In this document: positions 4,303-62,231 of the stretch, one piece after another | Layout of the letters: each line of letters starts with the position of its first letter | How positions within the stretch are numbered: the stretch's first letter is position 1 | Virus record (IMG/VR): IMGVR_UViG_3300017560_000010 | Direction: 5' to 3' (one strand) | Source: a virus | Length of the DNA: 64,000 nt | Notes under the pieces: generated by a model | The model's input: only the letters and a program-made list of their open reading frames with translations | The model's database searches: none | Told to the model about the DNA's origin: nothing | Made by a program: the position numbers and the translations under genes

Positions 4303-4430
4303 ACCTTCATGCCGGATTTTCCCGTGGGAGGATGAACTTCCGAATTTTCTTCTGGAAGCACCTCTGATAGCTTCTTTTTTTCACATGCAAAGCGCATGGT
4401 CATGACACACGGCGAAAGATTCAACTTCAA

Positions 4431-6296: not shown

Positions 6297-6338
6297 TCCG
6301 GGAAGCCGCAGGCATCACCTGCGGTGTCCGCCATCGCC

Positions 6339-6965
6339 TCAGCCATACCATTTGCGTTTCGGCCCGGAATCGATGTGAACGAAACGATTCCGGTAATGCC
6401 CCGTTCCTCCGATCTCCAGCCACTCGGCGATTTCAGCGAGATCGGAGACCTTTGCGCCCGGCATTGTGAAATCGACGGCCTTTGCCTCGAGGTGAAGCGA
6501 CTTCTTGGCCGCGCCATACCCCCTGGCTCTGAGGAAATCATTGGTCTTGTTGGTCCTGAAGCCCGAGTTTGCATGAATGAGGCCGGGATTTCCCGCCTTT
6601 ATGCCGCTCATCCGCAGGGCGGCAAGCCCCCAGAGGAGCCGGATGTCCATCTGTCGGGTTTCCTGCTGGCGCCAATCCCGCATGATCCAGTTGAACTCGC
6701 GAACGGCATCCATGTTGTAGCCGGATGAACGGTAGAACCTGAATTTCGCGCGTTCCTTGGTATTGGTGTTGTAGATCTCGAGCACGGGCTCGATATCCCG
6801 GACCAGGCTGTCGAGCCTGCTTCCCGCCCGATTTGGGGTGTTTGCAAAACCCGAGGTCGGCAACATGGCCGGCAGAACGGCGGTCGCCGGCACCAAGGCC
6901 GCACAGGCGAGGTTTGTCAGGAAGGATCTTCTGCCAAGCATAGGCAACTCATCTTCATTAATCAT
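6339..6965 (-). CDS. Tat-secreted DUF882 / peptidase M15A family protein (MepK/YcbK-like murein peptidase)
   Basis: Twin-arginine signal MLGRRSFLTNLACAAL. Family-typical GYRTNKTN, HLEAKAVDF, HYRNRFVHIDSG motifs. Confidence 0.7.
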   Translation of the reverse strand: MINEDELPMLGRRSFLTNLACAALVPATAVLPAMLPTSGFANTPNRAGSRLDSLVRDIEPVLEIYNTNTKERAKFRFYRSSGYNMDAVREFNWIMRDWRQQETRQMDIRLLWGLAALRMSGIKAGNPGLIHANSGFRTNKTNDFLRARGYGAAKKSLHLEAKAVDFTMPGAKVSDLAEIAEWLEIGGTGHYRNRFVHIDSGPKRKWYG

Positions 6966-7153
6966 TTTCGCATGCAATAATAGCGCCGGAAGGCATGTTT
7001 TCCATGCGAAGCTCCGTTATTCGTTGTGGATTCGCGTATGAGAGCGGGAATTGGCCGATCGAGGCCGATTTTTTTCGTCCATTTGGTTTGGGAATTTCGT
7101 GCCCTGGTGCCATCATCCCTCATGAACAAGTGGTAATCCCTTGAATTTGAAAG

Positions 7154-7705
7154 GTGGAACCGATGAACCATGCCCTTGCAGTCGCGCATACGCGTCGCGT
7201 TGATGTCCCGGATGACGTGCCCGGAGGCCGGGAGAACAGCATCGTTGTGCGTTACGACGCCGGCCGGAAGGCTGATGGTGAAGTGATCTACGCGATGATC
7301 TCGCTGACGGATCTGGCGAAATTGCCAGGATCCGTTCTCGAAGGCATCAATATGCTCTCGAAAGGACCCGATGGCTCCCTGGTCGGAAGCCCGAACGCCT
7401 TCTTCCGGGCCCATCCCGAGGAGGGAAACGTCCTCTACGTCAACACCTGGGAGCATGGCGATTTCGTGACGACACTCGGAAACGAGGCCGTCCGGTCCGG
7501 TCTGGAAGCGTTCATGGCAAATGGCGACATCAATGCTTTCCGCGGGCCGGACGGATCCGATATCGATCCTCCGGAGACGCCGGCGTTCATCGCGCTGAAC
7601 ATGGAACATCTGCCGGTCCGCGTGGCGATCTCAGAACTGCATGCACTGCGTTCCGAGCGGGAGAATCGTGCCGATGCCGTATCACCGTCAGGAATGTCGA
7701 TGTGA
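7154..7705 (+). CDS. Hypothetical protein
   Basis: ORF with coding-like composition; no recognisable motif. Confidence 0.4.
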   Translation: MEPMNHALAVAHTRRVDVPDDVPGGRENSIVVRYDAGRKADGEVIYAMISLTDLAKLPGSVLEGINMLSKGPDGSLVGSPNAFFRAHPEEGNVLYVNTWEHGDFVTTLGNEAVRSGLEAFMANGDINAFRGPDGSDIDPPETPAFIALNMEHLPVRVAISELHALRSERENRADAVSPSGMSM

Positions 7706-7720
7706 GTGGAGTGATCGCGG

Positions 7721-9110: not shown

Positions 9111-9204
9111 AGGATAGTCCGTTTTCCCCAAGTGATTGTCATTTTTGCGCTAGGTTTTTCGCATTTCTGAATAGATTCACCCTGACAACCATTGGAACGA
9201 TGTG

Positions 9205-11828: not shown

Positions 11829-12112
11829 TCATACGCACATCTTTTATAGGGGCCGACGATGGCTGCCGCGCTTGGTTGATTCGATTATCCTGAAGGAAAA
11901 ATCAACATCATTCTTGCGACTGGAGCAATATAAGTGGGAAGCGGTATTTTTTATCCGACACTTTTGGATAGCTGCCCTCCAAAGTGTGAACGCGTCCATT
12001 TCTTGACCGGCAGGACATACTGCCATCATCGCATTGAATTTCGTGCGAAAATGCTTGCGAAAGGCGTCCCCGCCACCAACATATCATACAGGATAGTCCT
12101 CTGGAGTTCATA

Positions 12113-12883
12113 ATGGAAAAATATGCCGTGACCGCGCCCTCTGCACAAAATCCAGGCAGAGAGAATGTCGATCTGGGGCTTCGGGATCACATGAACCGGG
12201 TCTACACCCTGATGTCCATGGGACTCATGGTCACGGGATTGACGGCATGGATTGTGGCGAGCCTTGCGATTTCCGGAACGGAGACCAAGCATGTGATGAC
12301 CAATGGAACCTATCTAACCGATCTTGGGCATGCCATCTTCATGACCCCCTGGGCTTTCGTCATCATGGTGTCGCCCCTGGCGATCGTTCTGCTTCTGGGC
12401 TTTGGCATCATGCAGATCTCGGGACGGACAGCGACAATCGTCTTTCATCTCTTCGCCGCATTGATGGGGTTGTCGATGAGCACGATCTTTGCCGTCTACA
12501 CGACAGGATCAATCGTCCAGACCTTCCTCGTCACATCCGCGGCTTTCGCCGGACTGTCGCTTTTTGGCTACACGACGAAAAGGGATCTCTCCGCCGTGGG
12601 AGCTTTCCTGATCATGGGTCTATTTGGCCTCATCATCGCGATGGTGGTGAACATCTTCGTTCAGTCTACAGCCCTCGACCTTACGCTTTCGGTGCTCGGT
12701 GTCCTGATTTTCGCCGGATTGACGGCTTATGATACCCAGAAGATCAAGGGTGAGTATCTGCAGCTTGCGGGCCGTGGTGATGAGAGTTTGCGGAAGGTCG
12801 CGGTGATGAGCGCACTGACCCTCTACCTGGATTTCGTCAACCTCTTCCTGACCCTGCTGAGACTTCTGGGCAACAAGCGTTGA
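12113..12883 (+). CDS. BAX inhibitor-1 / YccA family inner-membrane protein
   Basis: About 7 TM helices. N-terminal RVYTLMSMGLMVTGLTA and C-terminal LTLYLDFVNLFLTLLRLLG are family hallmarks. Confidence 0.8.
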   Translation: MEKYAVTAPSAQNPGRENVDLGLRDHMNRVYTLMSMGLMVTGLTAWIVASLAISGTETKHVMTNGTYLTDLGHAIFMTPWAFVIMVSPLAIVLLLGFGIMQISGRTATIVFHLFAALMGLSMSTIFAVYTTGSIVQTFLVTSAAFAGLSLFGYTTKRDLSAVGAFLIMGLFGLIIAMVVNIFVQSTALDLTLSVLGVLIFAGLTAYDTQKIKGEYLQLAGRGDESLRKVAVMSALTLYLDFVNLFLTLLRLLGNKR

Positions 12884-13236: not shown

Positions 13237-14478
13237 TCAAGAAACCCGGAGCATCCGGTGTTTCTTTTTCCCGATCGAGACGACCAACCCGTCCTGGATG
13301 TGGTTCGGGTCCGTTCTCGTGGCCAAGTCGACCAGGCATCCGTCAAAGCGCACAGCGCCATCCTGGATCAGGCGTTTTGCTTCCTTGCCTGAAGCGGCCA
13401 GTCCGGTAAGGACAACGATCCTGGATGCGGAAACCGCTTCCGAGAGCACATCCGCCGAGACGATAATCTCGTCGAGGCCGGATCCGTCGCCGACCTGCCC
13501 GAAGACATTACCGGCCGTCTCCGAGGCCTCTCGTGCCGCGTCTGGACCATGGATCAGCATTGTGACCTCGTCGGCGAGGACCTTTTTGGCTTCGTTGATA
13601 TCTGCTCCCTGGAGGGCTCCCAGCCTGTCGCATTCAGGAACAGGCAGCTCCGTGAACAGTTTCAGGAAACGGCCCACATCCGCATCATGAGTGTTGCGCC
13701 AGAACTGCCAGAACTCGTAGGCCGAAAGCATGTCCGGATTGAGCCAGATGGCCTTGCCCGAAGACTTGCCCATCTTCTTTCCATCGGATGTTTCGATGAG
13801 CGGCGTTGTCAGACCGAAAAGCTCACGCCCGTCGGCCCGTCGTGCAAGCTCGATCCCGTTGACGATATTTCCCCATTGGTCCGATCCTCCCATCTGCAAC
13901 CGGCAGCCGTGCACCCTGCCGAGGTGCAGGAAGTCATAAGCCTGCATGCACATGTAGTTGAACTCGAGAAGGCTCAGGCTCTCCAGCCTGTCCAGCCGAA
14001 TCTTGACGGAATCGAAGGACAGCATGCGGTTGACCGAGAAATGACGACCGATGTCCCGCAGGAAATCGATGAATTTCAGGCCATCCAGCCAATCCGCATT
14101 GTCCAGGATGAGCGGCGGGTTGGTGGGATCGTCAAGAAGAAGGTGGAATGGTCTCAGCAGACCTTCCATATTGCGAGCGATTTCCTCATGGGTCAGCATG
14201 GGGCGTTCGCTCGATCGGAACGACGGATCTCCGATCCGGGTGGTCCCGCCGCCCATCAACACGATCGGCTTGTGACCGCAGTGCTGAAACCAGCGCAGCA
14301 TCATGATGTTCACCAGATGCCCGACATGCAGGCTTGGCGCCGTGGCATCGTAGCCGATATAGCCGGTGACAGGCGCTTTGGTCAGCATCTGGTCGAGTGC
14401 CGCCATGTTGGTGCAGGCGGAGACAAATCCCCGCTCCTGCATGATCTGGAGGAAGTCAGATCGAACTTCAGCCGCCAT
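13237..14478 (-). CDS. tyrS: Tyrosine--tRNA ligase
   Basis: Class I HIGH motif (HVGHL), KMSKS variant (KMGKS), and C-terminal S4-like domain ([22 protein letters not shown]). Confidence 0.9.
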
Positions 14479-14583
14479 TACCCTGCCCGTTCGCCTTATG
14501 AGAAAGTGCTTATCATTCTATTTCTGGCGTGTCTTTTTCGCAAGGGCATTCTAAACTGGGAGAGAACAACCGGGATCAACGGC

Positions 14584-15513: not shown

Positions 15514-15535
15514 ATTCATGCGAAAAGGAAAGCTT

Positions 15536-16977: not shown

Positions 16978-18033
16978 TCATGCGCTTCCCCAGGAGGGTC
17001 GGTCCTCGGCGAGAGTCAGGCCTTGACGGAGGACGCCGGCAAATTTGCTCGCACTGATCGCACGACCGAACCTCTTCTTCCGGGCATCCCGGATAGCCGC
17101 GCTCAGGGCGCCCTTCGCTTTTTTATCCTCATCGCCCAACGCCGGCATTCCGGTCACGGACCAGGGAAGAATGGCGAAATAGGATGCGGTGCCGGAGTCG
17201 TCCTCATCATCGATATCCTCCAGGTCCATATTGCCGATGAAGCGCAGCGCGAGCAGGTGCAGCCGGCCGCCGCCCCCGCGATGGAGGCCGATATAGTAAC
17301 CGCCCATGTCGTCGGCCCCCTTCAGATTGGCATAGACGTCGATCTTGCCTTCAGGCTGCCATCCTGCCGCGCGGATGATCTCGCTCTCCTTTTCGGCGGC
17401 TGCCTTTGCGAAGCCAGGGCTTAACTGCTCCCTGGTAAGGATATACTTCCATTCGCGCGCGACACCCGTTTGGTCCTCGAGCGCCTCGAGGAAGGATCCG
17501 TATTTCCGCTTCCCGACCGGGGCACCGCGCTTGTCGGAGTTCCAGGTGGCAAGGGCCCAGGCGATTTCCCTTGGGCCGACGATGGAAGCCTCCTTCCAGT
17601 TGGTTTCAAACCAATCGGCCGCGGTCCGGGCAGCCTCCTCATTCCCGTCCATGAGCACTGAAGCTTCGATCAGCCTGGCGGGCGAAAGAAAGCCAACTCC
17701 GCGGCTTGAAAGATTGGCCGAGCCAACAACGCAGCCCTCGTCCGAGAGATATACCTTCGCATGGAAGTCGGGCAGCCATCTCAGGTTTTCGCCGAGCTTT
17801 TCGGAAAGCGCCTTCAATGCGTGGGGGTTTGTGCCGCCCATGCCGATATCGCAAATCAGCCTGGACCCTGCCTGGACAGCGTCTTCCGCTCCGCTGCCAA
17901 GGAATGCCGAAGCGATCCGTACGTCCTTCCCAGACAAGATCCGCTTGATCTGTGGACTGCTTCCGGCTTCGAGGTCCGAACTGATTACAAACTGCATTCC
18001 CGACATCCCTGGCACTATGAAAGGTGCAACCAC
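16978..18033 (-). CDS. Phospholipase D (HKD) family nuclease-like protein with uncharacterised ~200-aa C-terminal domain
   Basis: Single HKD motif HAKVYLSDEGCVVGSANLS (HxK(x)4D(x)6GSxN). Confidence 0.65.
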   Translation of the reverse strand: MVAPFIVPGMSGMQFVISSDLEAGSSPQIKRILSGKDVRIASAFLGSGAEDAVQAGSRLICDIGMGGTNPHALKALSEKLGENLRWLPDFHAKVYLSDEGCVVGSANLSSRGVGFLSPARLIEASVLMDGNEEAARTAADWFETNWKEASIVGPREIAWALATWNSDKRGAPVGKRKYGSFLEALEDQTGVAREWKYILTREQLSPGFAKAAAEKESEIIRAAGWQPEGKIDVYANLKGADDMGGYYIGLHRGGGGRLHLLALRFIGNMDLEDIDDEDDSGTASYFAILPWSVTGMPALGDEDKKAKGALSAAIRDARKKRFGRAISASKFAGVLRQGLTLAEDRPSWGSA

Positions 18034-18090
18034 ATGATATGGTTCTCTGGAAAAATCAACGGTAATTCCTTTCCTGAGCGGGATTCCATG

Positions 18091-18143
18091 TCATGCGAAA
18101 ATGTTATTGTTGCAAACACCTCACGATGATAGTTTTCGCATGA
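18091..18143. promoter_or_regulatory. Inverted pair of the recurrent motif (TCATGCGAAAA ... TTTTCGCATGA) in the PLD/SPFH divergent intergenic region
   Basis: 11-bp perfect inverted repeat separated by 31 bp. Confidence 0.5.
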
Positions 18144-18176
18144 AGGGCAGAAGCCTCGAGTTTGAAAGGATGAACC

Positions 18177-19118
18177 ATGAATTTTCGCCGTTTTCTGCGC
18201 GTCCTCGTCCCATTGGGCATGGCGCTCTCCCTCGCCGGCTGTATCGGCGAAACGGTCGAGGTGCCGACCGCGCATCGCGGAATGATCAGCACCAGCGCCG
18301 GCCTGAAAGAGGGCGTCCTGCCGCCATCGAAGATCCGGCTGTCGAACATGTGCCTGACGTGCGACTCGCTGATCATCGCGGAGATCAGCGATTACGGCAT
18401 CTCCGAGAATTTCGAGCTCTATATGCCGAAGGATCGCCTGAACCTGACGGTCGATGTCCGTGGCACCTTTGCCACCTCGGATACCGAGAAGGACCTGTCG
18501 ATGATCTTCAGCCGGGTTTCGGCCCAGCCGGTGACGGAAAGGGTGAAGGCGATCCGCGCTTCCACGGTCTACGAGACCTACGCCCAGCAGATCGTGCGTG
18601 AAAAAGCACGCTCCGTGCTTGCGAAATATGATATCGCGACGGTCATGGAGAACCGTGATTCAATCAGTGCCGAGCTTTTCGCGGAGGTGGTCGAGGCCCT
18701 TGAAGGCCGGCCGGTCAAGGTGCTGAACTTCGGCCTGAACGATGCACAGCCCCCTTCGGTCGTGACCGAAGCTGAGCTGAAGCGCAAGGAGCGAGAGATC
18801 GCCATCCTGCAGGCGGAAGCCAACAAGGAAGTGTCGTTGCGCGAAGCAGAAGCCGCGCTGGAAGTTGCCAAACTTCAGCAGGCTGTCGACCTGAAAGAGG
18901 CTGAAACCCAGGTCCTGGTCGAACAGAAGCTGAAGGAGGGCTTCTCCGATGCCTTCGTCGCTCAGCGCGGTCTTCGGATCCTCGAAGAGCTGGCGAAATC
19001 CGACAACCAGATCGTCTTCCTGCCCACCGAGGCCCTGAACAACCCTTCGGTGATGATCGGCGGCCTTGGCAAGGCCTTCGAGGATCAGCGCAAAGCGCGG
19101 GAAGCCGCGCGCCAATGA
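18177..19118 (+). CDS. SPFH/band-7 domain lipoprotein
   Basis: Lipobox LSLAGC after signal peptide. SPFH-like core and C-terminal coiled-coil (EAEAALEVAKLQQAVDLKEAE). Confidence 0.65.
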   Translation: MNFRRFLRVLVPLGMALSLAGCIGETVEVPTAHRGMISTSAGLKEGVLPPSKIRLSNMCLTCDSLIIAEISDYGISENFELYMPKDRLNLTVDVRGTFATSDTEKDLSMIFSRVSAQPVTERVKAIRASTVYETYAQQIVREKARSVLAKYDIATVMENRDSISAELFAEVVEALEGRPVKVLNFGLNDAQPPSVVTEAELKRKEREIAILQAEANKEVSLREAEAALEVAKLQQAVDLKEAETQVLVEQKLKEGFSDAFVAQRGLRILEELAKSDNQIVFLPTEALNNPSVMIGGLGKAFEDQRKAREAARQ

Positions 19119-23845: not shown

Positions 23846-24015
23846 TTTCTCATGCAGATTATCACGCAGGTTTTCGCCTGACCAGCGCTGAAATCATTGC
23901 GTGATCCTGATTACAGATCAACGACCCGCTCTCATCGATACGGATTCTCCAATACATTTTCGCATGACAGTCACGGTTGGGCTGTTGTATGATCAGGAAA
24001 ACGTAAGAGGTCGGA

Positions 24016-26802: not shown

Positions 26803-27393
26803 GTGCAGACGACCACCCTATCCTATTCGAACATCCATAAACATGGGGAGCTCTTCGCGAATTTGTTTCGCGCGAGGAAGCAACATTTCATCGACCGTCG
26901 GAAGTGGCAGCTTCCGGAAACCGATGGAATGGAATTCGACCAATACGATACGCCGATGAGCAGGTGGATCGCGATTCACGACAGTGAGCGCGTGCTTGCC
27001 GGATTCCGTCTGACTCCGACCACGGCGGTATGCGGCAGCTACAGTTACATGATCCGCGACGCCCAGAACGGAATTCTTGGCGGGTCGATCCCGGAGAATC
27101 TTCTGGATTCAGAAGCGCCGGTCGACCAGAATACCTGGGAGTTGACCCGCGTCTTCATCGATCACGCCATCCCCCAAGGCGGCCGGCGCCGGGTGCAAAT
27201 GCGTCTTGTGGAATCGATCATTGAAACAGCCCGTGAGTTGGGAGCACTTCATCTCATCGCACTGACCGATGCCACTTGGCCACGGTTTTTCAGCCGGTGT
27301 GGCCTCGAGGCGGAGGCGGCCGGCCCCCGGGTGTCGATTGATGACGGTGAATTTCAATGCGTGATGATTCATTTGAAAGGCAAGATGCACTGA
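26803..27393 (+). CDS. Acyl-homoserine-lactone synthase (LuxI family)
   Basis: LuxI-family invariant positions are present: R..F.....W, EFDQYD, RLTPTT, WELTRVF. Confidence 0.75.
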   Translation: MQTTTLSYSNIHKHGELFANLFRARKQHFIDRRKWQLPETDGMEFDQYDTPMSRWIAIHDSERVLAGFRLTPTTAVCGSYSYMIRDAQNGILGGSIPENLLDSEAPVDQNTWELTRVFIDHAIPQGGRRRVQMRLVESIIETARELGALHLIALTDATWPRFFSRCGLEAEAAGPRVSIDDGEFQCVMIHLKGKMH

Positions 27394-28866: not shown

Positions 28867-28929
28867 TTGGTTTGCATTTTTTTCGCATCGCTCTTCTATA
28901 TTAGTGTGGACCGACAGTGAGGTTACGTC

Positions 28930-30479: not shown

Positions 30480-31184
30480 ATGCCCGCCTTCATCGTAACC
30501 GAACACCATGAAAACACAGGTGGTATCGTCTTCGCTCAGACGATGGAGGAGGCGAAGACCCGTGGTGCTCAGACCGTTCTCGACATGGATCCAGATGAGG
30601 ATGCGATCGTCGTCAGGCGCGCCGAGAACCTCGATATCTATGAGGGAGGGAAGATCCCCGCATCGGTTCTGATCGATGAAGGATGGATCCTCGACTGTGA
30701 CGGCTGCGGCATGAGCCTCTCTTCGGGGAGCCTGGACGATGAGGAAATGCGAAGCGAAGATGTCGTAGGCTTCTACGATCTTGCCATCCATTGCTGTCAT
30801 CATTGCCGTATGGAGGATCTGGCCTCCCGAGCCGGAAAGACGGCGTTCAGCGAGGCCTATTTCGACATGATGGCGGATATGATCCGCAAGCGATGTGGTG
30901 ATGTGGAGATCATCAGGACGGGGGATTTCCGCCCTTCAGCGAATGTCAGGAAGATCGAGGGTGTCATGACCATGATCGAGGCGGAGATCTCCTTCAATTT
31001 CCCAGGCCAGGTTTACGCACCCGCCAGCCTCGAACTGGAACAGCCGAAGACAGGCCATCACATGACACGCCACCCCTCGGAGGTGCAGGGTCCGCCCGCG
31101 ATGCATTACCGCTGCAGGATGGGCGATCTGGACGTGTTTCAGGACTTTCTGGAGAGCCGGGAGGCAAAGAATGGCACAGCATAA
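30480..31184 (+). CDS. Hypothetical protein (Cys/His-containing)
   Basis: 234 aa; CDGCGM and HCCHHC segments. Confidence 0.4.
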   Translation: MPAFIVTEHHENTGGIVFAQTMEEAKTRGAQTVLDMDPDEDAIVVRRAENLDIYEGGKIPASVLIDEGWILDCDGCGMSLSSGSLDDEEMRSEDVVGFYDLAIHCCHHCRMEDLASRAGKTAFSEAYFDMMADMIRKRCGDVEIIRTGDFRPSANVRKIEGVMTMIEAEISFNFPGQVYAPASLELEQPKTGHHMTRHPSEVQGPPAMHYRCRMGDLDVFQDFLESREAKNGTA

Positions 31185-31470
31185 CCTGGCGCAGCGCCTG
31201 CTGCGAAAACCGATCAATTGGCTTGTCGAGACCTTCTTCCCGATGGGAATCTTCTATGGAGACGCCCTGAACCGGCAATTCGCGAACATGACTGCCTATG
31301 ACGGCAAGGCCAGCGGTGAGACCGCGGTTGCCGGATATCTGATCAGCAAGGCCAATGAAATGGGCGCGGAGGATATCGAGATCGAGGTGAAAAACCTGAC
31401 CGTTCGCGGCGTGCCATCTGGCAGTTGGCGGATCAGGATCGAGAAATTCGAGACGGAGGCGGATTCGTGA
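31171..31470 (+). CDS. Small hypothetical protein
   Basis: Overlaps the previous gene by 14 nt. Confidence 0.35.
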   Translation: MAQHNLAQRLLRKPINWLVETFFPMGIFYGDALNRQFANMTAYDGKASGETAVAGYLISKANEMGAEDIEIEVKNLTVRGVPSGSWRIRIEKFETEADS

Positions 31471-31673: not shown

Positions 31674-32549
31674 TTAGACGCCTTCACGTCTCATCTTCTG
31701 CTGCCGCTCGAACTCGGCGGGCGACAACATCCCATTCCTCGCATGTTTGCGCTTCGGGTTGTAGAACATCTCGATGTAATCGAACACGTCCTGCCTTGCG
31801 TCTTCGCGGGTCCGGTAGGTTCTGCGCCTGATCCGCTCGCGCTTGAGCAGGTTGAAGAAGCTCTCGGCAACGGCGTTGTCATGGCAGTTGCCGCGGCGGC
31901 TCATCGAATGCTCAAGATTGTGGGCGCGCAGGAACGCAGCCCAATCCATGCTGGTGAACTGACTGCCCTGATCTGAATGGATCAGCACCTTGTTCTTCGG
32001 CTTGCGCCGCCAGACGGCCATGAGCAGGGCCTGCAGGACGACATCTGTCGTCTGTCTGCTTTGCATCGACCAGCCGACCACGCGCCGGGAATACAGGTCG
32101 ATGACCACCGCGAGGTAAGCGAACCCCTCTTGCGTCCGGATGTAGGTGATGTCGGTTACCCAAACCTTGTCCGGAACCTCGACATCAAACTGCCGGTCGA
32201 GGGTGTTGTCGACCACGACCGACGGCTTGCCGCCATAGCTGCCGGGGCGGCGCTTGTAGCCGATCTGTGCCTTGATCCCCGCCAGTTGCGCCAGTCGGGA
32301 AACGCGGTTCGGACAAATGCTTTCGCCCTGTTCGACCAGATCGTCATGCAGCTTGCGGTAGCCGTAGACCTTGCCGCTCTCGGCCCAAGCCTTCTGCAGC
32401 AGTTCGGTCTGGCGCCTGTCTTCCTGCGCCCGCTGGCTCAGCGGTGTCTTCAGCCACGCGTAGAACCCGCTCGGCTGGATACGCAGGCACCGGCACATCG
32501 CCCGCACCGAAAACTGACCCCGATGCTCGGCTACGAACGCGTATCTCAC
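31674..32549 (-). CDS. IS3-family transposase OrfB (DDE integrase core)
   Basis: WVTDITYI, LAVVIDLYSRRVVGW, HSDQGSQFTS, and NAVAESFF motifs. Confidence 0.85.
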   Translation of the reverse strand: MRYAFVAEHRGQFSVRAMCRCLRIQPSGFYAWLKTPLSQRAQEDRRQTELLQKAWAESGKVYGYRKLHDDLVEQGESICPNRVSRLAQLAGIKAQIGYKRRPGSYGGKPSVVVDNTLDRQFDVEVPDKVWVTDITYIRTQEGFAYLAVVIDLYSRRVVGWSMQSRQTTDVVLQALLMAVWRRKPKNKVLIHSDQGSQFTSMDWAAFLRAHNLEHSMSRRGNCHDNAVAESFFNLLKRERIRRRTYRTREDARQDVFDYIEMFYNPKRKHARNGMLSPAEFERQQKMRREGV

Positions 32550-32818
32550 TTTGCATCCCTGGCGAAATACGCGGTGGCCTTTTTTAGGATGTCGCGCTCC
32601 TCCGACACCCGGACCAGCTCACGCTTCAGCCGACGGATCTCGGCATCCTTCTCCGTGTCACCCGACACCGCCTTCGCGAACTTGCGCTTCCAGGCATAGA
32701 GCGAGTGCGTGCTCACACCCAGCCGTGCCGAAACTTCCTTTGCCGGATAACCCCGTTCCGTGATCTGCGCGACAGCATCGCGCTTGAAGTCGTCAGTGAA
32801 ATTGCCCGTGCCCATCAT
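32546..32818 (-). CDS. IS3-family transposase OrfA (HTH)
   Basis: Typical OrfA with leucine-zipper-like C-terminus. Overlaps orfB in the -1 frame (programmed frameshift arrangement). Confidence 0.8.
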   Translation of the reverse strand: MMGTGNFTDDFKRDAVAQITERGYPAKEVSARLGVSTHSLYAWKRKFAKAVSGDTEKDAEIRRLKRELVRVSEERDILKKATAYFARDAK

Positions 32819-34366: not shown

Positions 34367-34412
34367 GGGCACTTCCTTTTCAACATGACAATCCATTTTC
34401 GCACGACCGTCC

Positions 34413-34865: not shown

Positions 34866-34960
34866 TCGAACAACGCCTACGCCAATTGGAATTTTCGCAT
34901 ATGCATCATGTGCCGCCCTTATGCCCCTGCGAAAGGCAGGCCCGATCTGGAGTATCATGA

Positions 34961-35494
34961 TTAGATCTCCGGTCCGGCAGCATCCAGGCGCCTGAGCGCC
35001 TCTTCAAAGTGCTGGGCGAGCCGCAGGGCGAAGTATTCGCCGGCATCGTTGAAATCGCCCCATACCTCTTGGGCGAGAAGCCATGTCGCATCCTCCTCAT
35101 CGGGAAGATCCCGCACCGCTCTTGAGAAGATCCCGACGCAGGCCTCCACGAGCTTCTCGCTGTGTTCCTTGCCGCGATACCGGAAATCCACCGCGACGCC
35201 TTCAATGCACAGGCCAAACCTGTCGAGGGTAAGGGAAAGCTGCCCGATGACCTTCGCGTCTTTGGTGAGGAGAAGTGTGAATCCAGTATGGCTTGGAACA
35301 GGCGCAATCCCCCATCCGGGGTGGTTGAGCGTGTCGTGATCCGCAAGTTCGATTGCATTGGCCTCGAAAACGAGTCCACCGTTGATCGCCTCGTCCGCGA
35401 TGACCACGTCGAAGCCTTCCCCGGGGTCACGTGAAAGCGCCGCGATCTCGCGCAGAAGCGACTGTCGCACGGATTGCGAAAGATCGAGGGGCAT
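34961..35494 (-). CDS. GNAT-like acetyltransferase (paralog 2)
   Basis: FRYRGKEHSEKLVEA. Paralogous blocks PxxxGFTLL...VIGQLSLT with 34413..34865. Confidence 0.4.
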   Translation of the reverse strand: MPLDLSQSVRQSLLREIAALSRDPGEGFDVVIADEAINGGLVFEANAIELADHDTLNHPGWGIAPVPSHTGFTLLLTKDAKVIGQLSLTLDRFGLCIEGVAVDFRYRGKEHSEKLVEACVGIFSRAVRDLPDEEDATWLLAQEVWGDFNDAGEYFALRLAQHFEEALRRLDAAGPEI

Positions 35495-35636
35495 GACGGG
35501 TTCCTTGATTTACGTTTTCGCATAATAACGTATCCCGCCCCACCGAAATCCAAAAGTTCGGTGTCCGGGCAATCTGAACGCACGGTTTTTTCACAGGAGG
35601 AAGCTATTCTCCCGGTAACAGAACAGGAGCGGATTC

Positions 35637-37382
35637 ATGGAGAAGATCACCGATTTCGGCGAGCATATCCCGGGAGCAGCCAAGGAAAAACGGGCAGCAT
35701 GGCTGCACAAGGCCTCCCTTTATGTCGGCGAGCAGATCGCCAGGGAACCATTTGCGAAAACTTTCCCTGAACCGAATTGGACCGGACTTCTGGCCGATGG
35801 CATGGATCCATGGCTGGTGAGTTTCGCCAGGGCCCTGCGTGACTCGATCGATACCAAGCCCAAGCGGTTGCACCATCTTGCCATGTGGGCCAGGACGGTG
35901 GAGTCGATCCGCAATATCACGATCGACATGTTCTCCGGAAAAATCGAGAAGGAAACCTGCCAGTCCATCCTCGACCGCCCCTCGAATGCCGGCCTGAAGC
36001 AGAAGATCGACTGCAAGATCGAACTCTATGAGATGACCGGCCACAGCCGTTCCCTCAAGGACATCACCATCGGTAAGGTCGGGAAGAACTATGAGGATGG
36101 CGTCCGCCTCCCTGAAACCAGGTTCCTGTGGAACGCATATACAGGCTCTGCCAGATCGATGGCGCTCATTGCGTCAGAACCTTCCAGGGATGCGTTGCTC
36201 CACGCTCTGGCAGAGAAGTTCCGCGCCGATCCGGACGCACAGGCAGAGACAAGGAAGAAGGGGACGAAGTTCGATCTCTACTGGAAGAGCAAATATCGCA
36301 CCGGGCCTGCCATGATTGCCAAGAAAGTCGGAACCCGGGTCATCGAGATCAAGGGCTTCGAGAACATGACGGATGCGAAAGCCTATCTGAAGGAGCATCA
36401 GGACGCGGTCGAGGATCTCTGGGAACGGATGAAAACGGTTCCGGCCGAACGTCGTGGCGAGAACCGCGACCGGGTCGGGCCGGATCATCGTGAGGGCAGG
36501 AATGTCAGCCCTGACATGTTCATGGAAACCTTCGGCTTCCGCGGCGTTCAGTTCGGCAATTACGTCGAGGGCCCACGGCGCCAGGAAGATCTCAACGACT
36601 GCTATGACGCCTTCATCGACCTGGCGGAGATCCTCGGGGTCGAACCGCGAGCCCTTTCGCTCAACGGAGAGCTGGGGATGGCCTTCGGCGCCAGGGGAAC
36701 CGGCGGCATCAATGCAGCGAAAGCACATTATGAGCCCGGCCATGTTGTTATCAACCTGACCAAGAACAAGGGAGCCGGATCGCTCGCGCATGAATGGTGG
36801 CATGGGCTCGCCAATGCCGTCTCGCGCTGGATGGGAGACCGGATGGGGGATGCGAGCGCGCAGCGCAAGCGCGGCAATCCAGAGCACGAGCCGGCGGCCG
36901 AAGCCCTCTTCAACGTCATCAAGGCGATTGGAGCCACGCAACTCCCGATGAGGTCTTCTCTTCTCGACCGGACACGCAGCGCCCCATATTTCTCGCTGGC
37001 TCTCGAAATGACGGCCAGGTCTTTCGAAACCTGGGTGATCGACAGGCTGGAAGCCAATGGACGCTCGAACGACTACCTTGCGAATATCGTCGATGAGCAG
37101 GTCTTCGCGGCGGAATCGGCCCTTCTCGGGCGGGATGGAGACCAGTATCCCTACCCGAAGGGCGATGAAATCCAGATCGTCGGCCGGGCCTTCGATGCCG
37201 TCTTCGCAGTGCCGGACCTGTTTCCGCTTGCCGAGGTGAAGGCCCTGCCCACACCGGTTCCCGCAATTGCGGCTGCAACCGACCCGGAAGCCGCGGAAGT
37301 TGCCCGGATTGCAGATATTCCGGCGCCTCTGGACGGGACGGACCCGCGGGACATCGATGTGAATGATATCTCCTGGGTCTGA
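35637..37382 (+). CDS. Large hypothetical protein with zincin-like HExxH motif (possible polyvalent-protein-type metallopeptidase)
   Basis: LAHEWWHGLANAV contains HExxH. 581 aa with no TM segments. Confidence 0.4.
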   Translation: MEKITDFGEHIPGAAKEKRAAWLHKASLYVGEQIAREPFAKTFPEPNWTGLLADGMDPWLVSFARALRDSIDTKPKRLHHLAMWARTVESIRNITIDMFSGKIEKETCQSILDRPSNAGLKQKIDCKIELYEMTGHSRSLKDITIGKVGKNYEDGVRLPETRFLWNAYTGSARSMALIASEPSRDALLHALAEKFRADPDAQAETRKKGTKFDLYWKSKYRTGPAMIAKKVGTRVIEIKGFENMTDAKAYLKEHQDAVEDLWERMKTVPAERRGENRDRVGPDHREGRNVSPDMFMETFGFRGVQFGNYVEGPRRQEDLNDCYDAFIDLAEILGVEPRALSLNGELGMAFGARGTGGINAAKAHYEPGHVVINLTKNKGAGSLAHEWWHGLANAVSRWMGDRMGDASAQRKRGNPEHEPAAEALFNVIKAIGATQLPMRSSLLDRTRSAPYFSLALEMTARSFETWVIDRLEANGRSNDYLANIVDEQVFAAESALLGRDGDQYPYPKGDEIQIVGRAFDAVFAVPDLFPLAEVKALPTPVPAIAAATDPEAAEVARIADIPAPLDGTDPRDIDVNDISWV

Positions 37383-38464: not shown

Positions 38465-38509
38465 TCAGCAAGACTTGCGAAAACGGCATGGGATGGTAGA
38501 CTTCCGGCC

Positions 38510-39801: not shown

Positions 39802-39948
39802 TGCGATGACATCCTTTTTTTCGCATTCTATTAATCTGTTCCCGCAGGAGCAAGGGATGTGGTGCCTGGGATATTTCCCGGGCTCTTTTTTCGTCTTGAA
39901 TGGCTATCTTTGAGGGAACGGAATTTACATCATTCGAGGTTCAGGCTC

Positions 39949-44635: not shown

Positions 44636-44682
44636 TTGGTCTTCCTTTATTCGCATCTACGTGACCGGAGGGCCTGAAAAGG

Positions 44683-45075: not shown

Positions 45076-45140
45076 AGCTGGTTACTCCGCATTTTCGCAT
45101 GCAGAGTAAGCGATAAATTTAATCGTGACAAGCGGTGAAA

Positions 45141-46544: not shown

Positions 46545-46900
46545 GGTGCGTCCCTTGTCCTGAGGTTCTGGAGCACAGGAAATCTATTCACACCGTGAGA
46601 AAAATACAGGTGTCGCAGATACCAAAGGCGATTGGCGATGGCCGAAACGAAAACTCCATCCCGTAGGATGGAGTGAACTCGACTGGGTAACTGAACAATC
46701 TTGAAACTGGACCCAGGCTATCATTCAAAGCCAGCGTGGCAGATCTGTTCTTTGAGACAAGTTCGGTCCCCTTGATTGCCAGTTTATACATTTTCGCACA
46801 TAATTATATCCGACAGCACGCCTGAGAACGCATATGCTCATTCCGTGTTTCCCGGCAGAATGCCAGCCGGCGTCTGAATCCGTCCGCGATCAGGCTTGCC

Positions 46901-50192: not shown

Positions 50193-50987
50193 ATATATGG
50201 AAGACGTAGTAGACGGCGCCTGAAGCTGCCGCGGATCGGTTGGGTCAGGATGCACGAGGCCTATCGCTTCAGCCCGGATCTCAACCCCGATCTGAAATCG
50301 GTGGTGATTTCGAAGGAGGGCGGTCGCTGGTTTGCCGCGGTCATGGCCGAGATCGACCATGAGCAGCCCCTGCACAATCACCGGCCGGCGGTCGGCGTCG
50401 ATCTCGGGATCACCGATCTGGCGACCCTGAGCACTGGCGAGAAGATCGCGGGTCCGAAGGCGCTGCGCTCGCATCTCAGGAAGCTTGCGAAACTGCAGAG
50501 ATCGCACGCCCGCAAGATGAAGGGCGGCAAGAACCGGGCCCGGTCCCGGGCGCGGATCGCGAAGCTCCATGCCCGGATCCGCAATATCCGCCAGGACAGC
50601 CTGCACAAGCTGACGACGATGCTGTCGCGCCGCTTTGGCAGCGTGGCGATCGAGGATCTCAATGTCCGGGGCATGATGGGCAATGGCCGTCTTGCCCGGG
50701 CGATCGCCGATATGGGCTTTTACGAATTCCGCCGTCAGCTCGGCTACAAGCTCGAGCGGGCCGGCGGGCGACTGATGGTCGCCGACAGGTTCTTTCCCTC
50801 GAGCAAGACCTGTTCCGGCTGTCACAGCAAGGTGGATCAGCTTCCACTCTCGGTCCGTTCCTGGACCTGCGCCACATGCGGCGCCGATCATGACCGCGAC
50901 ATCAATGCCGCGATCAACCTGAAGAACCTGGCCGGTAGCGAGGGCAGCAATCTCCGAAATTCTGTTCGGCGATCCTGCAGGCGGTAG
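50193..50987 (+). pseudogene. N-terminally truncated TnpB (IS605/IS1341 OrfB) remnant
   Basis: KLPRIGWVRM, the RuvC-I motif VGVDLGITDLATLSTGE, and a C-terminal zinc finger CSGCHS...CATCG. About 130 N-terminal residues missing, the open frame has no plausible start before ATG 50250, and no TnpA is present. Confidence 0.6.
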
Positions 50988-51605: not shown

Positions 51606-51704
51606 CGTTCTCGCGCCTTGTGTTTTTCGCATTATCGCAAGGCGACGCCTTCCAATCAAGACAGGAGGATCGGCAGAGAAGGCTTTTACCAACACCTTCC
51701 AGGC

Positions 51705-53800: not shown

Positions 53801-53965
53801 GGGTCGCGGCCTCCCGGGCCGGTCTTTCACCGGGCTGGAGCTCAAGCCCCTGCCATTGATTAATTTTCGCAAACTTACCGGGACCCTGCTTCTCGGTCAA
53901 CGGGGATTCGAAATTCCCATGGCAAGAAATGTCCTCCCATTCCAGTGAATGGGAGGTATTTTGGT

Positions 53966-56353: not shown

Positions 56354-56401
56354 TTTTCGCACGATCGCTCCTATTCTTGTGATGTTGCCCCTTTGCGAAA
56401 A
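56354..56401. promoter_or_regulatory. Inverted pair of the recurrent motif (TTTTCGCA ... TGCGAAAA) upstream of 56424 gene
   Basis: Two 8-mers in opposite orientation 32 bp apart, 23 nt before the ATG. Confidence 0.45.
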
Positions 56402-57483: not shown

Positions 57484-57486
57484 ATA

Positions 57487-59031: not shown

Positions 59032-59039
59032 GAGGAGTG

Positions 59040-59288
59040 ATGGCGATGACCGAAAATCGCGAAGATTGGTATGATCGGCGCCATGAATTGCGCCCGGACA
59101 TGGTCTTCCGGGACCATCTCGGCGATCTGGTCAAGCTCGATCGCACGGTTCCGGGCGACGGCACGAAATGGTATGTTGCCGATTGGTCCGGAAGAAGCTG
59201 GAGCTACGAAGACGGCACGATCGAGCCTGGGGATCTGGTTGAGCGGGTCGACGATCCGGAAGCGGAACATACCTGGAGCCCGGGTTAG
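59040..59288 (+). CDS. Small hypothetical protein
   Basis: GAGGAG RBS 3 nt upstream. Confidence 0.4.
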   Translation: MAMTENREDWYDRRHELRPDMVFRDHLGDLVKLDRTVPGDGTKWYVADWSGRSWSYEDGTIEPGDLVERVDDPEAEHTWSPG

Positions 59289-59348
59289 TTCAGGCCCATT
59301 GACGGGTTGACGGGAAAATGTTCAGGATCTCCCAAACCGGAGATCCTG

Positions 59349-62231
59349 ATGACCCCGCATGCTTTCATCTCAAAATGGCGCAATGTCGAGCTCAAGGAGC
59401 GGAGCGCGTCGCAGGCCCACTTCATCGATCTCTGCAAGCTTCTCGACATCGAGGATCCGGTTTCGGCGGATCCGAAGGGCGAGTGGTTCACCTTCGAGAA
59501 AGGGGCCAGCAAGACCACTGGTGGTGAAGGGTGGGCCGATGTCTGGCGAAAGGAATGCTTCGCCTGGGAATACAAGGGCAAGAGAAAGGACCTCAGGGCC
59601 GCGTTCTCACAACTTCAGCAATATGCAATCGCCCTGGAGAATCCTCCGCTCCTGATCGTATCCGACATGGACAGGATCCAGATCCACACCAACTGGACCA
59701 ATACGGTCCAGCAGGTCCATGAAATCTCGCTCGAGGAACTCGCAGATGCGGGTATGAGAGACTTGCTGAAGTCGGCATTTCTCGACCCCGAAAAGCTCCG
59801 CCCCACCAGGACGAGACAGGGACTAACAGAGGAAGCGGCCGGCCGCTTCGCTGCTCTTGCCATGAACCTGCGCAAGCGTGGACATGAGGCGCACGAAGTG
59901 GCCCACTTCGTGAACCGGCTCATATTCTGTCTGTTTGCCGAGGACGTGAATCTGCTGCCGGACCGGATGTTCCAGCGCATGATCGAAACCTCGCAGCGTG
60001 ATCCATCCAGATTTCAACCCAATGCAACCCTGCTCTTCACCGCCATGCATGGCGGTGGCATGGTCGGGTTCGAACAGGTCGAATGGTTCAATGGCGGATT
60101 GTTCGATCATGGAGAGGCACTGCCCCTCGAAGCGCAGGATGTGACCGAACTCCTTGCAGCCGCACGTCTTGATTGGTCGGAAATCGATCCATCGATCATG
60201 GGCACGCTTTTCGAAAGGGGCCTAGATCCGGAAAAACGCAGCCAACTGGGCGCCCATTATACCGACCGCGACAAGATCATGCAGATCGTCCAGCCCGTCA
60301 TCGTCGACCCGCTCCTCGCGGAATGGGAAGATGCCCGCGAACAGATCTCTTCCGCCTTGAGCAAGGCGGCAGCGGCGAGGTCATCCTCTTCGAGAACGAA
60401 GGCCATGAAGCAGGCGGAGGCATTGAAGAACGTCTTCCTGGAACGCCTGAGGAACTACAAGGTCCTCGATCCCGCATGTGGATCAGGGAATTTCCTCTAC
60501 CTGGCGCTTCTCGCACTCAAGGATCTCGAGCACCGGGTCAATCTCGACGCCGAGGCCATGGGATTGCCGAGAGAGTTTCCGAGGATCGGTCCGGAAAACG
60601 TGTTCGGGATCGAGAAGAACCCCTATGCGGCCGAGCTGGCGAGAGTTTCGGTCTGGATCGGAGAAATTCAGTGGATGCGCCGAAATGGGTTCGAGGCTGG
60701 CCGCAACCCTATCCTTCGTCCGCTATCCAATATCGAGAACAGAGATGCTGTTCTCTCTGAGGATGGAACCCGTGCCGAATGGCCAGACGTCGATGCTGTC
60801 ATCGGAAATCCGCCCTTCATAGGCAATAAGAAGATGATCTCGGAGCTTGGCGAGGACTACACCACCAAGCTGCGCCGGGTGTGGAGCCATGTGCCGGGAG
60901 GCGTTGATTTCGTCTGCTACTGGTTCGCCAAGGCATGGGACATGATCGAAGCAGGCCGTCTGTCCCGCGCCGGCTTGGTCTCGACCAATTCGATCCGCGG
61001 CGGTGCCAATCGTGATATACTGAATCCGGTTGTAGAACATGGACGTATTTTTGAAGCCTGGTCGGACGAGCCATGGACGGTGGACGGCGCAGCTGTCCGT
61101 GTTTCGATGATATGCTTCGATGGCCAGCCAGGCGGGCCTGTCCACTTGGATGGTTCTGAGGTGCAGGAGATTTTTGCGGATTTGTCGGCGGCTCGTGGAG
61201 GCAACGATCTGACAAAAGCCTCCCAGATCGTGGAAAATCTCGGCATTGCCTTCCAGGGGCCAGTCAAGGTGGGTCCATTCGATGTAACGGGAGATCTTGC
61301 CCGTGAATGGCTGACGCGCTCAGGAAACCCGAACGGAAGACGGAATGCAGAAGTCGTCCGCCCGCTTCTGAACGGCATGGACATTACCCGCAGGTCTTCA
61401 GGCAGGTGGATTGTTGATTTCGGGGCCATGACCGAGGAAGAAGCTTGCCTTTTCGAAGCTCCTTTTGAATATGTCCGCGCGCATGTAAAACCTTTGAGAG
61501 ATGAAAACAGGGACCTTCAAAGAAAACAGTTCTGGTGGCGCCTTGGCCGGTCTGGCAGTGAGTTGCGTGAGGCTGTCGCACCGCTCCGAAGGGCAATCTT
61601 CACCCCGCGAGTAGCTAAGCATCGCTTGTTTGCATGGTCTGATGCGCGCACCCTTCCTGATAGCCGCGTCGTCCTCATCGCCAGAGAGGACGATACCTCA
61701 TTCGGGATTCTTCACTCATGCTTCCATGAGTTGTGGTCGCTGGCTCTTGGTGGATGGCATGGGGTTGGCAACGACCCGCAATACACGCCGTCCCTTGGTT
61801 TCGAAACCTTCCCTTTCCCAGAAGGCCTGACCCCCGACATTCCCGCCAAGGATTATGCTTCTGACCCCCGGGCGCAGGCGATCGCCGCTGCCGCCGCCAG
61901 TCTGAACGAATTGCGCGAGACATGGCTCAACCCGCCTGATCTGGTTCGTCGCGTGCCGGAAGTCGTCCCGGGATATCCCGATCGCATCTTGCCCGTGAAT
62001 GAATTGGCCGAGAAGGAGCTGAAGAAACGCACCCTCACGAACCTCTACAATGCACGCCCTTCCTGGCTCGATCATGCCCACAAGAAGCTGGATGGAGCGG
62101 TGGCGGAAGCTTATGGTTGGGGTGAAGACTGGAGAAAGGGAATTCTGGTCGACAATGAAATCCTTGCCAGGTTGTTCAACCTCAATCAGCAAAGATTTTC
62201 GCATCTTAAAAATGAGAGATTGACTCGATAG
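59349..62231 (+). CDS. MmeI-family Type IIL restriction-modification enzyme (endonuclease + N6-adenine methyltransferase + TRD in one polypeptide)
   Basis: N-terminal segment FISKWRNVELKERSASQAHFIDLC...ADVWRKECFAWEYKGK is collinear with the MmeI N-terminal PD-ExK nuclease. Motif I VLDPACGSGNFL precedes motif IV VIGNPPF (gamma-class amino-MTase). Confidence 0.75.
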   Translation: MTPHAFISKWRNVELKERSASQAHFIDLCKLLDIEDPVSADPKGEWFTFEKGASKTTGGEGWADVWRKECFAWEYKGKRKDLRAAFSQLQQYAIALENPPLLIVSDMDRIQIHTNWTNTVQQVHEISLEELADAGMRDLLKSAFLDPEKLRPTRTRQGLTEEAAGRFAALAMNLRKRGHEAHEVAHFVNRLIFCLFAEDVNLLPDRMFQRMIETSQRDPSRFQPNATLLFTAMHGGGMVGFEQVEWFNGGLFDHGEALPLEAQDVTELLAAARLDWSEIDPSIMGTLFERGLDPEKRSQLGAHYTDRDKIMQIVQPVIVDPLLAEWEDAREQISSALSKAAAARSSSSRTKAMKQAEALKNVFLERLRNYKVLDPACGSGNFLYLALLALKDLEHRVNLDAEAMGLPREFPRIGPENVFGIEKNPYAAELARVSVWIGEIQWMRRNGFEAGRNPILRPLSNIENRDAVLSEDGTRAEWPDVDAVIGNPPFIGNKKMISELGEDYTTKLRRVWSHVPGGVDFVCYWFAKAWDMIEAGRLSRAGLVSTNSIRGGANRDILNPVVEHGRIFEAWSDEPWTVDGAAVRVSMICFDGQPGGPVHLDGSEVQEIFADLSAARGGNDLTKASQIVENLGIAFQGPVKVGPFDVTGDLAREWLTRSGNPNGRRNAEVVRPLLNGMDITRRSSGRWIVDFGAMTEEEACLFEAPFEYVRAHVKPLRDENRDLQRKQFWWRLGRSGSELREAVAPLRRAIFTPRVAKHRLFAWSDARTLPDSRVVLIAREDDTSFGILHSCFHELWSLALGGWHGVGNDPQYTPSLGFETFPFPEGLTPDIPAKDYASDPRAQAIAAAAASLNELRETWLNPPDLVRRVPEVVPGYPDRILPVNELAEKELKKRTLTNLYNARPSWLDHAHKKLDGAVAEAYGWGEDWRKGILVDNEILARLFNLNQQRFSHLKNERLTR

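Follow-up and report, generated by a model that had tools for sequence, protein, structure and literature searches.

A short word recurring at promoters of a giant plasmid-like element as the putative operator of an accessory-gene regulon

The subject of this study is a stretch of 64,000 nucleotides (nt) from the IMG/VR virus record IMGVR_UViG_3300017560_000010, referred to as the window throughout, and more specifically a short word, TGCGAAAA (reverse complement TTTTCGCA), that recurs near the 5' ends of its genes. By Pfam content, the window carries tail-fibre-like genes (BppL_N plus Peptidase_S74), tyrS, a topoisomerase, an SNF2 helicase, an MmeI-family enzyme, and LPD5/LPD1 polyvalent-protein domains. 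Megablast found no nucleotide match of the window to any deposited phage, and none of 10 large open reading frames (ORFs) of the window matched a PHROG family. Between 6 and 15 kb upstream of the window start lie TrbI, DotH/IcmK, two DotI/IcmL, and a 1108-aa DnaG-type primase, which together represent a Dot/Icm-type conjugation system (type IVB secretion system, T4BSS). The same element was assembled as 229.7-, 195-, and 59.7-kb contigs in several samples (ENA ERZ27256359 k141_493614 with 229.7 kb; ERZ27256370 k141_25898; JGI 3300017565 Ga0182745_1000043), and around 100 kb of its at least 229.7 kb could be read. Given the conjugation genes and the length of these contigs, the window appears to be an accessory part of a large conjugative, megaplasmid-like element (at least 229.7 kb), and not the chromosomal island that a preliminary description of this DNA had suggested.

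Counted on both strands, the window contains 24 exact copies of the word, compared to 2.82 +/- 1.46 (at most 6) in dinucleotide-shuffled sequences and 3.1 under a third-order Markov model, by which it is the most over-represented 8-mer of the window (z ~12). The extended 10-mer TTTTCGCATG is found 6 times with 0.24 copies expected. Enrichment and location had both been noticed before, as about 22 nearly always intergenic copies against a chance expectation of 1-2, and both are borne out by our recount. When genes are taken as called on public contigs with 100% identity to the window, 90.7% of it is coding and only 5,975 bases (9.3%) are intergenic, and 20 of the 24 exact copies fall into about 18 of these spacers. 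The other four lie in coding sequences (31202, 35753, 62196, and 34892), the last of them in a 5' end that is probably over-extended. Variants with one mismatch show only a weak enrichment in spacers (15 intergenic, 60 coding), so that the word is sharply defined, with position 3 as the most mismatch-tolerant one (as in TGAGAAAA and TGTGAAAA). Flanking preferences are weak and limited to A at -1 (13/24), C at -2 (11/24), and T at +8 (11/24); beyond this cA..tg pattern, no conserved structure or flank surrounds the copies. A literature search for the word returned primers only. Several coordinates had previously been given with an error of 2-11 nt (15511 for 15519, 39829 for 39818, 51628 for 51624), and the supposed copy at 44650 is the one-mismatch variant TGCGAATA at 44648. 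The sites in the window are the following:

1772-1779, minus: exact copy, reversed relative to the genes, in the spacer of two plus-strand tail-fibre-like genes; TTTTCGCA ends 52 nt before ATG 1832, and no sigma70-like promoter reads in the TGCGAAAA direction (score 1.9).
6965-6972, minus: exact copy 23 nt upstream of the M15-peptidase start 6941; TGGAAA-16-TATTAT ends 4 nt before it (promoter score 10.5).
9156-9163, minus: exact copy, reversed, 41 nt upstream of ATG 9205 (plus), with the degenerate direct copy AGCGCAAA 12 nt away.
12044-12063, plus: exact copy with a tandem one-mismatch copy, TGCGAAAG (12056), 61 nt upstream of the BI-1 (Bax1-I) gene.
14535-14542, minus: exact copy in the divergent spacer of tyrS (start 14478, 56 nt away) and a Metallophos gene (start 14584, 41 nt away); a possible tyrS -35 (TTGCGA-17-TAGAAT) overlaps the copy, which for the plus-strand gene falls within the spacer of GTGTCT-17-TAAACT.
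15519-15526, plus: exact copy, separated by 2 nt from a preceding TAAATT; the spacer measures 22 bp, and the HD_4 gene starts 9 nt downstream of the word (15536).
18094-18140, no strand assigned: inverted pair TGCGAAAA-N31-TTTTCGCA in the divergent spacer of a PLD-like gene (start 17997) and a Band_7 gene (start 18177).
23957-23964, minus: exact copy between divergent genes, 51 nt from ATG 24016 and 132 nt from the start (23824) of a second Band_7 gene, whose ATG is preceded at 20 nt by the variant TGAGAAAA (23845).
28880-28887, minus: exact copy, reversed, within the spacer of TTGCAT-19-TATATT, 42 nt upstream of ATG 28930 (DUF5983 gene).
31202-31209, plus: exact copy in the coding sequence 31171-31470, 31 nt past the gene start.
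34396-34403, minus: exact copy in a 46-bp spacer, 29 nt upstream of ATG 34366 (170-aa gene).
34892-34935, minus: exact copy, followed after 26 nt by ATG 34865, an alternative start of a GNAT-like gene (pipeline start 34958); an inverted partner with one mismatch (cTTTCGCA) lies 28 nt upstream of the copy.
35475-35522, minus: exact copy at 35515 whose T is also part of TATTAT; the GNAT-like gene starts 20 nt downstream (35494), and an inverted partner with one mismatch is found 32 nt downstream of the copy.
35753-35760, plus: exact copy inside the LPD5/LPD1 polyvalent-protein gene.
38476-38483, plus: exact copy in a 45-bp spacer, 26 nt upstream of ATG 38510, with no recognisable -10 upstream.
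39818-39825, minus: exact copy whose T is at the same time the last T of TTGCTC-17-TAGAAT; the Metallophos-like gene starts 16 nt downstream (39801).
44648-44655, minus: one-mismatch copy TGCGAATA (the form of the Paracoccus plasmid, see below), 12 nt upstream of the PAPS-reductase-like start 44635.
45092-45099, minus: exact copy 16 nt upstream of ATG 45075; TTGTCA-17-TACTCT ends 3 nt before it (TACTCT-gca-TGCGAAAA).
46791-46798, minus: exact copy with TATAAT 4 nt upstream; the spacer measures 356 bp, and the start 46544 is 246 nt away.
51624-51639, minus: exact copy that abuts a second one with a single mismatch (TGCGATAA); the phosphoesterase-like gene starts 18 nt downstream (51605), and the last T of TTGATT-17-GATAAT belongs to the word as well.
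53864-53871, minus: exact copy immediately 3' of TTGACC-17-TAAGTT, 63 nt upstream of a 116-aa gene heading the SNF2 helicase operon.
56354-56401, no strand assigned: inverted pair TTTTCGCA-N32-TGCGAAAA flanking the -10 of TTGTCT-18-TATTCT, the second copy 22 nt upstream of ATG 56424 (128-aa gene).
62196-62203, minus: exact copy within the 3'-terminal 36 nt of the MmeI-family gene; ATG 62286 lies 82 nt downstream.

It had been proposed that some annotated start codons inside the word are artefacts, and this is plausible: ATG 15518, which lies within CATGCGAAAA, is likely a spurious start compared to the pipeline start 15536, and the pipeline start 34958 stands against the alternative ATG 34865.

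Homologues of the SNF2 gene led to two patchily related giant elements, a 733-kb contig with 69% GC and cas genes of the I-F type (Csy2/Csy3; represented by locus L015) and the 535-kb "plasmid unnamed1" of Paracoccus sp. ME4 with an SNF2 protein of 90% identity (represented by L019); sequence records of these relatives are NZ_CP151277.1 and ERZ25074135 ctg10162. Locus L015 contains 10 copies of the word in 21.7 kb where 0.25 are expected at its GC content, while L019 and a further relative, L014, carry TGCGAATA or TGCGAAAA upstream of genes. No excess of the word was seen in fifty-odd other SNF2-containing loci of proteobacterial genomes (56 genomes examined), and the enrichment was thus confined to giant elements. 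Judged by sequence, the word is conserved across elements of 54-69% GC. The roughly 40 kb of sequence flanking the window on its own element hold three intergenic copies and five in coding sequences, with none between the genes of the conjugation operon; the word is thus a feature of the accessory region with its many singly transcribed genes.

In the co-directional spacers of the window, eight copies read as TGCGAAAA towards the next start codon (nine if the start at 34958 is re-called) at distances of 9, 16, 18, 22, 26, 29, 63, and 246 nt, compared to four reversed ones (1772, 9156, 28880, and 56354); in divergent spacers, the orientation of a copy is ambiguous. Across all unambiguous spacers of window, flanks, and relatives, there are 14-15 forward and 6 reversed copies. 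The gene-ward orientation that had been claimed for the word is therefore a bias but not a rule. Reversed intergenic copies also include L019 11750, L014 6029, and L321 15700 (L321 covers sequence beyond the window end), and their number is far above chance. The six unambiguous ones face the 3' end of a gene, and the ORFs downstream of them look non-coding. Both inverted pairs of the preliminary description were found again (18094/18133 with N31 and 56354/56394 with N32), with opposite polarity (-> <- and <- ->, respectively). Inverted partners with at most one mismatch at 36-40 bp from start to start are present at four loci of the window as well as in L019 and L014. We rejected uptake or repetitive extragenic palindrome (REP)-type repeats and pairs embedded in terminators as explanations, since the copies follow the 5' and not the 3' ends of genes and the pair arms, 31-32 nt apart, form no hairpin before a T-run.

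The window, L015, L019, and L014 together provide 37 intergenic sites (L019 2384 among them may lie in an ORF), and 14 of these have a strong sigma70-type -35/-10 pair whose -10 ends between -1 (i.e., with a shared T) and +5 nt before the word. When the same flanks were dinucleotide-shuffled, 1.03 +/- 0.95 such sites were counted and 0 of 1000 shuffles reached 14. Hexamers of the form TAnnnT peak at gap -1 (7 compared to around 2 expected), and hexamers starting with TTG peak 22-23 nt upstream of the word. Typical examples are L019 7989 (TTGACC-17-TAAATT directly followed by TGCGAATA), L019 11786 (TTGTCG-17-TATGAT|GCGAATA), and L014 6065 (TTGTTG-17-TATTAT|GCGAATA), besides the shared-T sites 51624 (GATAAT|GCGAAAA) and 39818 (TAGAAT|GCGAAAA) of the window. 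Under standard promoter geometry, the word would thus occupy around -7 to +1 with transcription starting at its last A, so that it would remain almost wholly untranscribed.

The same association does not make the word a part of every promoter. Of 14 strong sigma70-like promoters in the spacers of the window, only five have the word immediately after the -10, which suggests that it marks a regulon. No -10 is found upstream of copies 38476 and 56394, and the six reversed copies that were scored (all but L321 15700) reach promoter scores below 5.5 in their own direction. Copies 56354, 28880, and 14535 lie inside the -35/-10 spacer of a neighbouring gene's promoter, and the reversed copies L019 11750 and L014 6029 abut a -35. 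Beside copy 39818, on its reversed side, a terminator-like hairpin with a T-run (39864-39893, plus strand) is found about 40 nt downstream in the divergent spacer and 55 nt before ATG 39949, where a short RNA or attenuator is possible.

An invariant word on core promoters that is biased in orientation, sometimes paired, limited to a subset of promoters, and spread over elements of 54-69% GC fits a protein-binding site better than a promoter part or an RNA signal. Reversed copies without a promoter of their own similarly make sense as binding sites but not as promoters. In addition, the word is the half-site of perfect palindromic repeats in P1-like phage-plasmid contigs (see below) and of other operator-like repeats in phages, and is thus the type of sequence that DNA-binding proteins recognise. 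Our favoured interpretation, which we hold to be about as probable as all others together, is that TGCGAAAA is the dispersed operator of one predicted element-encoded and sequence-specific regulator, probably a repressor; protein binding, repression, and the timing of action are what we infer here. This regulator would be encoded elsewhere on the giant plasmid-like element and act on the core promoters of around 20 singly transcribed accessory genes. Bound at -7 to +1 after the -10 of a host sigma70-type promoter, a position that implies repression, it would block open-complex formation or promoter escape. Copies that are reversed within the -35/-10 spacer or abut the -35 may act as well, and two copies at 36-40 bp distance might control a few of the promoters. 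The promoters would be silent in an established plasmid and could fire when the regulator is absent or inactivated, e.g., upon entry into a new host. The more general proposal of the preliminary description, a shared operator or promoter-associated signal that links otherwise unrelated genes, is supported: the operator side of it by the intergenic location near promoters, the limitation to a subset of genes, and the presence in relatives, while a leader signal is disfavoured because the word would be largely untranscribed. A generic promoter is argued against by the reversed copies without own promoter and the small share of strong promoters that carry the word after the -10.

The putative regulon includes phosphoesterases, GNATs, an HD hydrolase, tyrS, Band_7, BI-1, the SNF2 operon, the PAPS-reductase-like gene, and others, with membrane proteins among its products. 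We know of no work on how the hundreds of orphan accessory genes on plasmid-like elements of 230-730 kb are controlled, and an invariant 8-mer at about 20 promoters defines a ready-made regulon that includes genes beside NAD/ADP-ribose functions. A cluster of NAD/ADP-ribose-related genes lies at window positions 63926-64000 and continues in L315 (5606-11126) and L321 (17804-20351), with genes for a NUDIX protein with an NrtR-type winged helix, ART-PolyVal, Macro, Tpt1/KptA (PTS_2-RNA), NAPRTase, and isochorismatase; the variant TGTGAAAA is located 11 nt before the start of the NrtR-like gene. If the regulon were an "establishment" programme on host entry, it would point to orphan genes that counter host defence. 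The word could further serve as bait to fish out the regulator (in the oligonucleotide form CATGCGAAAATG) and as a possible metagenome marker for related elements of any GC content. Dispersed operators on mobile elements are well known, so that the gain is a new case and not a new concept: a new regulon motif in an uncharacterised family of giant plasmid-like elements.

A close formal precedent is phage-plasmid P1, whose C1 repressor binds the operator ATTGCTCTAATAAATTT. Like the window word, C1 operators are asymmetric sites at many unrelated promoters of a large extrachromosomal element. In the P1 annotation, they are placed after the -10 (Ossb at P2ssb), fill the spacer (Oc1d at P1coi), or abut the -35 (Oc1e at P4cre), on either strand and in part as inverted doubles, and all these placements are also seen for the window word. 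However, the C1 operator has 17 bp compared to 8-10 bp for the window word, their sequences are unrelated, and the replicon studied here resembles a T4BSS conjugative megaplasmid instead of a P1-type phage. A tblastn search of the window, its flanks, and the relatives, covering about 100 kb of the element, gave no C1 homologue below E = 0.5. By this comparison, the parallel appears to be one of logic and not of membership. Also the IncP repressors KorA, KorB, and TrbA and the R388 network sit at many strong sigma70 promoters of their plasmids, overlapping the -10 or beside the -35, and allow a burst of expression on entry into a new host followed by silence. The operators of KorA/KorB type are palindromes of 12-13 bp or arrays of direct repeats, whereas the window sites are mostly single and asymmetric, and neither Pfam analysis of the called genes over about 100 kb nor tblastn with a KorB-type ParB revealed a KorA, KorB, or ParB gene.

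Several observations weigh against a dispersed operator. No candidate regulator was found in the about 100 kb of the element, where the only DNA-binding domains by Pfam are the helix-turn-helix of an insertion sequence (IS) transposase and the NrtR-like winged helix. A second half-site is absent at most sites, and such single asymmetric 8-mers are unusual for dimeric repressors: partners with up to two mismatches show no excess (37 compared to an intergenic background of about 40), and the window has no full palindrome, with 2-3 mismatches in the best abutting second halves (6965 and 45092). The orientation is biased (14-15 forward to 6 reversed copies), and the rather fixed geometry (gap -1 or 0 in 11 of the 14 recognisable promoters) is what would be expected of a built-in promoter module. 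Conservation is also difficult to trace site by site, as strain copies are 100% identical without close variants in the clusters, while the relatives share little synteny and their orthologous spacers do not align.

Such a built-in core-promoter module is unlikely in our view but the strongest competitor of the operator. Position -7 of the -10 would be supplied by the T of the word, followed by GCG as the discriminator and AAAA as the start region with an A at +1, and the module would be read by host RNA polymerase or a factor bound to it, either of the DksA/TraR/guanosine tetraphosphate (ppGpp) type or of the CarD type, to give all these genes common kinetics (growth-rate, stringent, or initiating-ATP control, as for rrn P1). 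Beyond the fixed gap, the A preferred at -1 (13/24) suits position 5 of a -10 hexamer, and TAnnAT-GCG is the same as the start of the E. coli rrnB P1 discriminator, TATAAT-GCGCC. A C two bases past the -10 is said, in work by Haugen et al. of 2006, to shorten the life of the open complex. GC-rich discriminators of the rrn P1 type share with the word, at part of its sites, the position between -10 and +1, the GCG right after the -10, and the A start, but they are not invariant 8-mers and are not known to occur reversed or paired away from a -10. Invariance at all eight positions would be atypical for a discriminator, the inverted pairs would remain unaccounted for, and the seven reversed intergenic copies, six of which were scored and lack an own promoter, could not be used as discriminators. 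While the word falls between -10 and +1 at 11-14 sites, this is not the case at reversed copies or at sites without a -10 such as 38476 and 56394, and gaps of +1 to +5 occur as well.

We consider it improbable that an alternative sigma factor or polymerase encoded by the element uses the word itself as a -10-only promoter that drives each small gene separately, comparable to TATAAATA for T4 gp55. A compact and invariant 8-mer without conserved flanks that is biased towards the gene and precedes start codons by 9-30 nt, also where the spacer measures just 22-46 bp (15519, 34396, and 38476), would suit this model well. Yet the sigma70 -35/-10 elements found immediately upstream beyond chance would be needless, the six unambiguous reversed copies would drive only non-coding-looking ORFs, transcription at 15519 would start 2-3 nt before the ATG and bypass an evident Shine-Dalgarno sequence, and no sigma factor or polymerase gene is seen in about 100 kb. 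Other promoter architectures were rejected. A general "TTTTC-N12-TAnnnT" arrangement failed because the excess of TTTTC is partly due to terminator tails and the coupling of reversed copies to a -10 is not significant (6 compared to 1.6 expected), and a sigma28-type -10 (GCCGATAA) has no conserved -35 partner. An archaeal BRE/TATA promoter, prompted by a borderline C/D-box match in Rfam, does not agree with genes that are bacterial and plasmid- or phage-like. A jumbo-phage promoter, suggested by the tail-fibre-like genes and tyrS, was dismissed given the lack of phage megablast and PHROG matches and the T4BSS genes in the flank. The late (Lpa) promoters of P1 have -22 boxes (AAGTTACTT and AAGTGATTT) that are unrelated to the word.

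Somewhat less probable still are half-sites of a centromere-operator system of the ParB/KorB type, read by a silencing partition protein like KorB of RK2. Scanning IMG/VR for inverted pairs of the word led to P1-like phage-plasmid contigs with darA, ddrB, lydA, and lydB. In these (IMGVR_UViG_3300037502_004185 and relatives), the perfect palindrome GTTTTCGCATGCGAAAAC, both halves of which equal the window 8-mer, occurs more than 10 times between genes, at or downstream of promoters, around a parA-parB operon (ParB_N + KorB + HTH_ParB) and close to darA/ddrB and lydAB, and the CA that precedes the window word matches the centre of this palindrome. A KorB-like protein thereby becomes a candidate reader of the word. 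In contrast to the window, however, these contigs have full palindromes, 47% GC, P1 genes, and a KorB-type ParB. Half-sites are poor targets of ParB dimers, the window and its flanks have no ParB gene, and no homologue of any ORF of the P1-like contigs, the KorB-type ParB included, was detected in the window. As TGCGAA half-sites are arranged differently in other phages, the match may be a coincidence, and the link, made at the DNA level only, could reflect convergence.

In their own right, marine-type P1-like contigs with 47% GC from IMG/VR (L098 1690-6812, L173 3131-9893, and L129) carry at least 10 copies of GTT(T/C)TCGCATGCGAAAAC around parA-parB(KorB), after a 145-aa gene, and in arrays spaced 41-49 bp. 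These repeats may constitute an undescribed KorB-like centromere/operator system in P1-like phages.

It is very improbable that the 8-mer is recognised by the methyltransferase-nuclease of the MmeI family (Type IIL) that the element itself encodes (59349-62231). Enzymes of this family recognise short asymmetric words in which one adenine is methylated, which would account for an asymmetric, mostly single, and invariant word as well as for the missing regulator gene. The about 20 promoters would then form an epigenetic entry switch without a dedicated repressor, on while un- or hemimethylated after conjugative transfer and off once fully methylated, or the converse. Least likely of all is an RNA-level signal in which UGCGAAAA is the conserved start of a 5' leader beside the ribosome-binding site, read by a translational regulator or nuclease: the word does lie 9-30 nt upstream of many start codons and right before the Shine-Dalgarno sequence, but at recognisable promoters the start would be its last A so that the word would not be transcribed, reversed copies are enriched too, there is no conserved structure or flank, and no known RNA family of Rfam matches at the word sites.

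The only Rfam match in the window, SNORD56 at 62225-62292 (minus strand) in the spacer after the MmeI-family gene, scores 36.9 bits with a threshold of 36 and is most likely a chance match. Within a few kb of the T4BSS cluster and the DnaG-type primase gene, three or four tail-fibre-like genes are arranged in tandem (window 1-3277 plus L012 2380-8847 and L317 8413-15034 for the whole arrangement); these genes may encode mating adhesins, or the element could be a hybrid of plasmid and phage. Two genes encode class-I W/Y aminoacyl-tRNA synthetases, tyrS (13237-14478, minus strand) and a 337-aa gene about 18 kb beyond the window end (L321 12519-13532). A LuxI-type autoinducer synthase gene (Pfam Autoind_synth) is encoded at 26803-27393 (plus strand), and no adjacent LuxR-type gene was seen in the window.

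Among mobile elements, a DDE_Tnp_1 insertion sequence at window position 12567 (L012 18138-19309) breaks the BI-1 gene in the 229.7-kb assembly only, and the window further contains an IS3-family element (31674-32815) and a short TnpB gene (50250-50987). A complete tnpA-tnpB pair of the IS200/IS605 type is found in L315 (17385-19209) with an exact copy of the 8-mer immediately before tnpB. In L015, a perfect inverted repeat with the arms TTTTCGCATCATA/TATGATGCGAAAA (2172-2206) covers two start codons, that of a truncated serine recombinase gene of the IS607 type and that of a gene divergent to it; the former had been considered as a MerR-type regulator before it was recognised as this recombinase. 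The same locus has around 20 copies of the CRISPR-repeat-like GCGGCTTAGAAG (~17400-19050) together with the Csy2/Csy3 genes. Lastly, the EcoRI site GAATTC is found 68 times in the whole window with 31.6 copies expected, and extensions of it such as CGAATTCG and GAATTCGA are over-represented as well.

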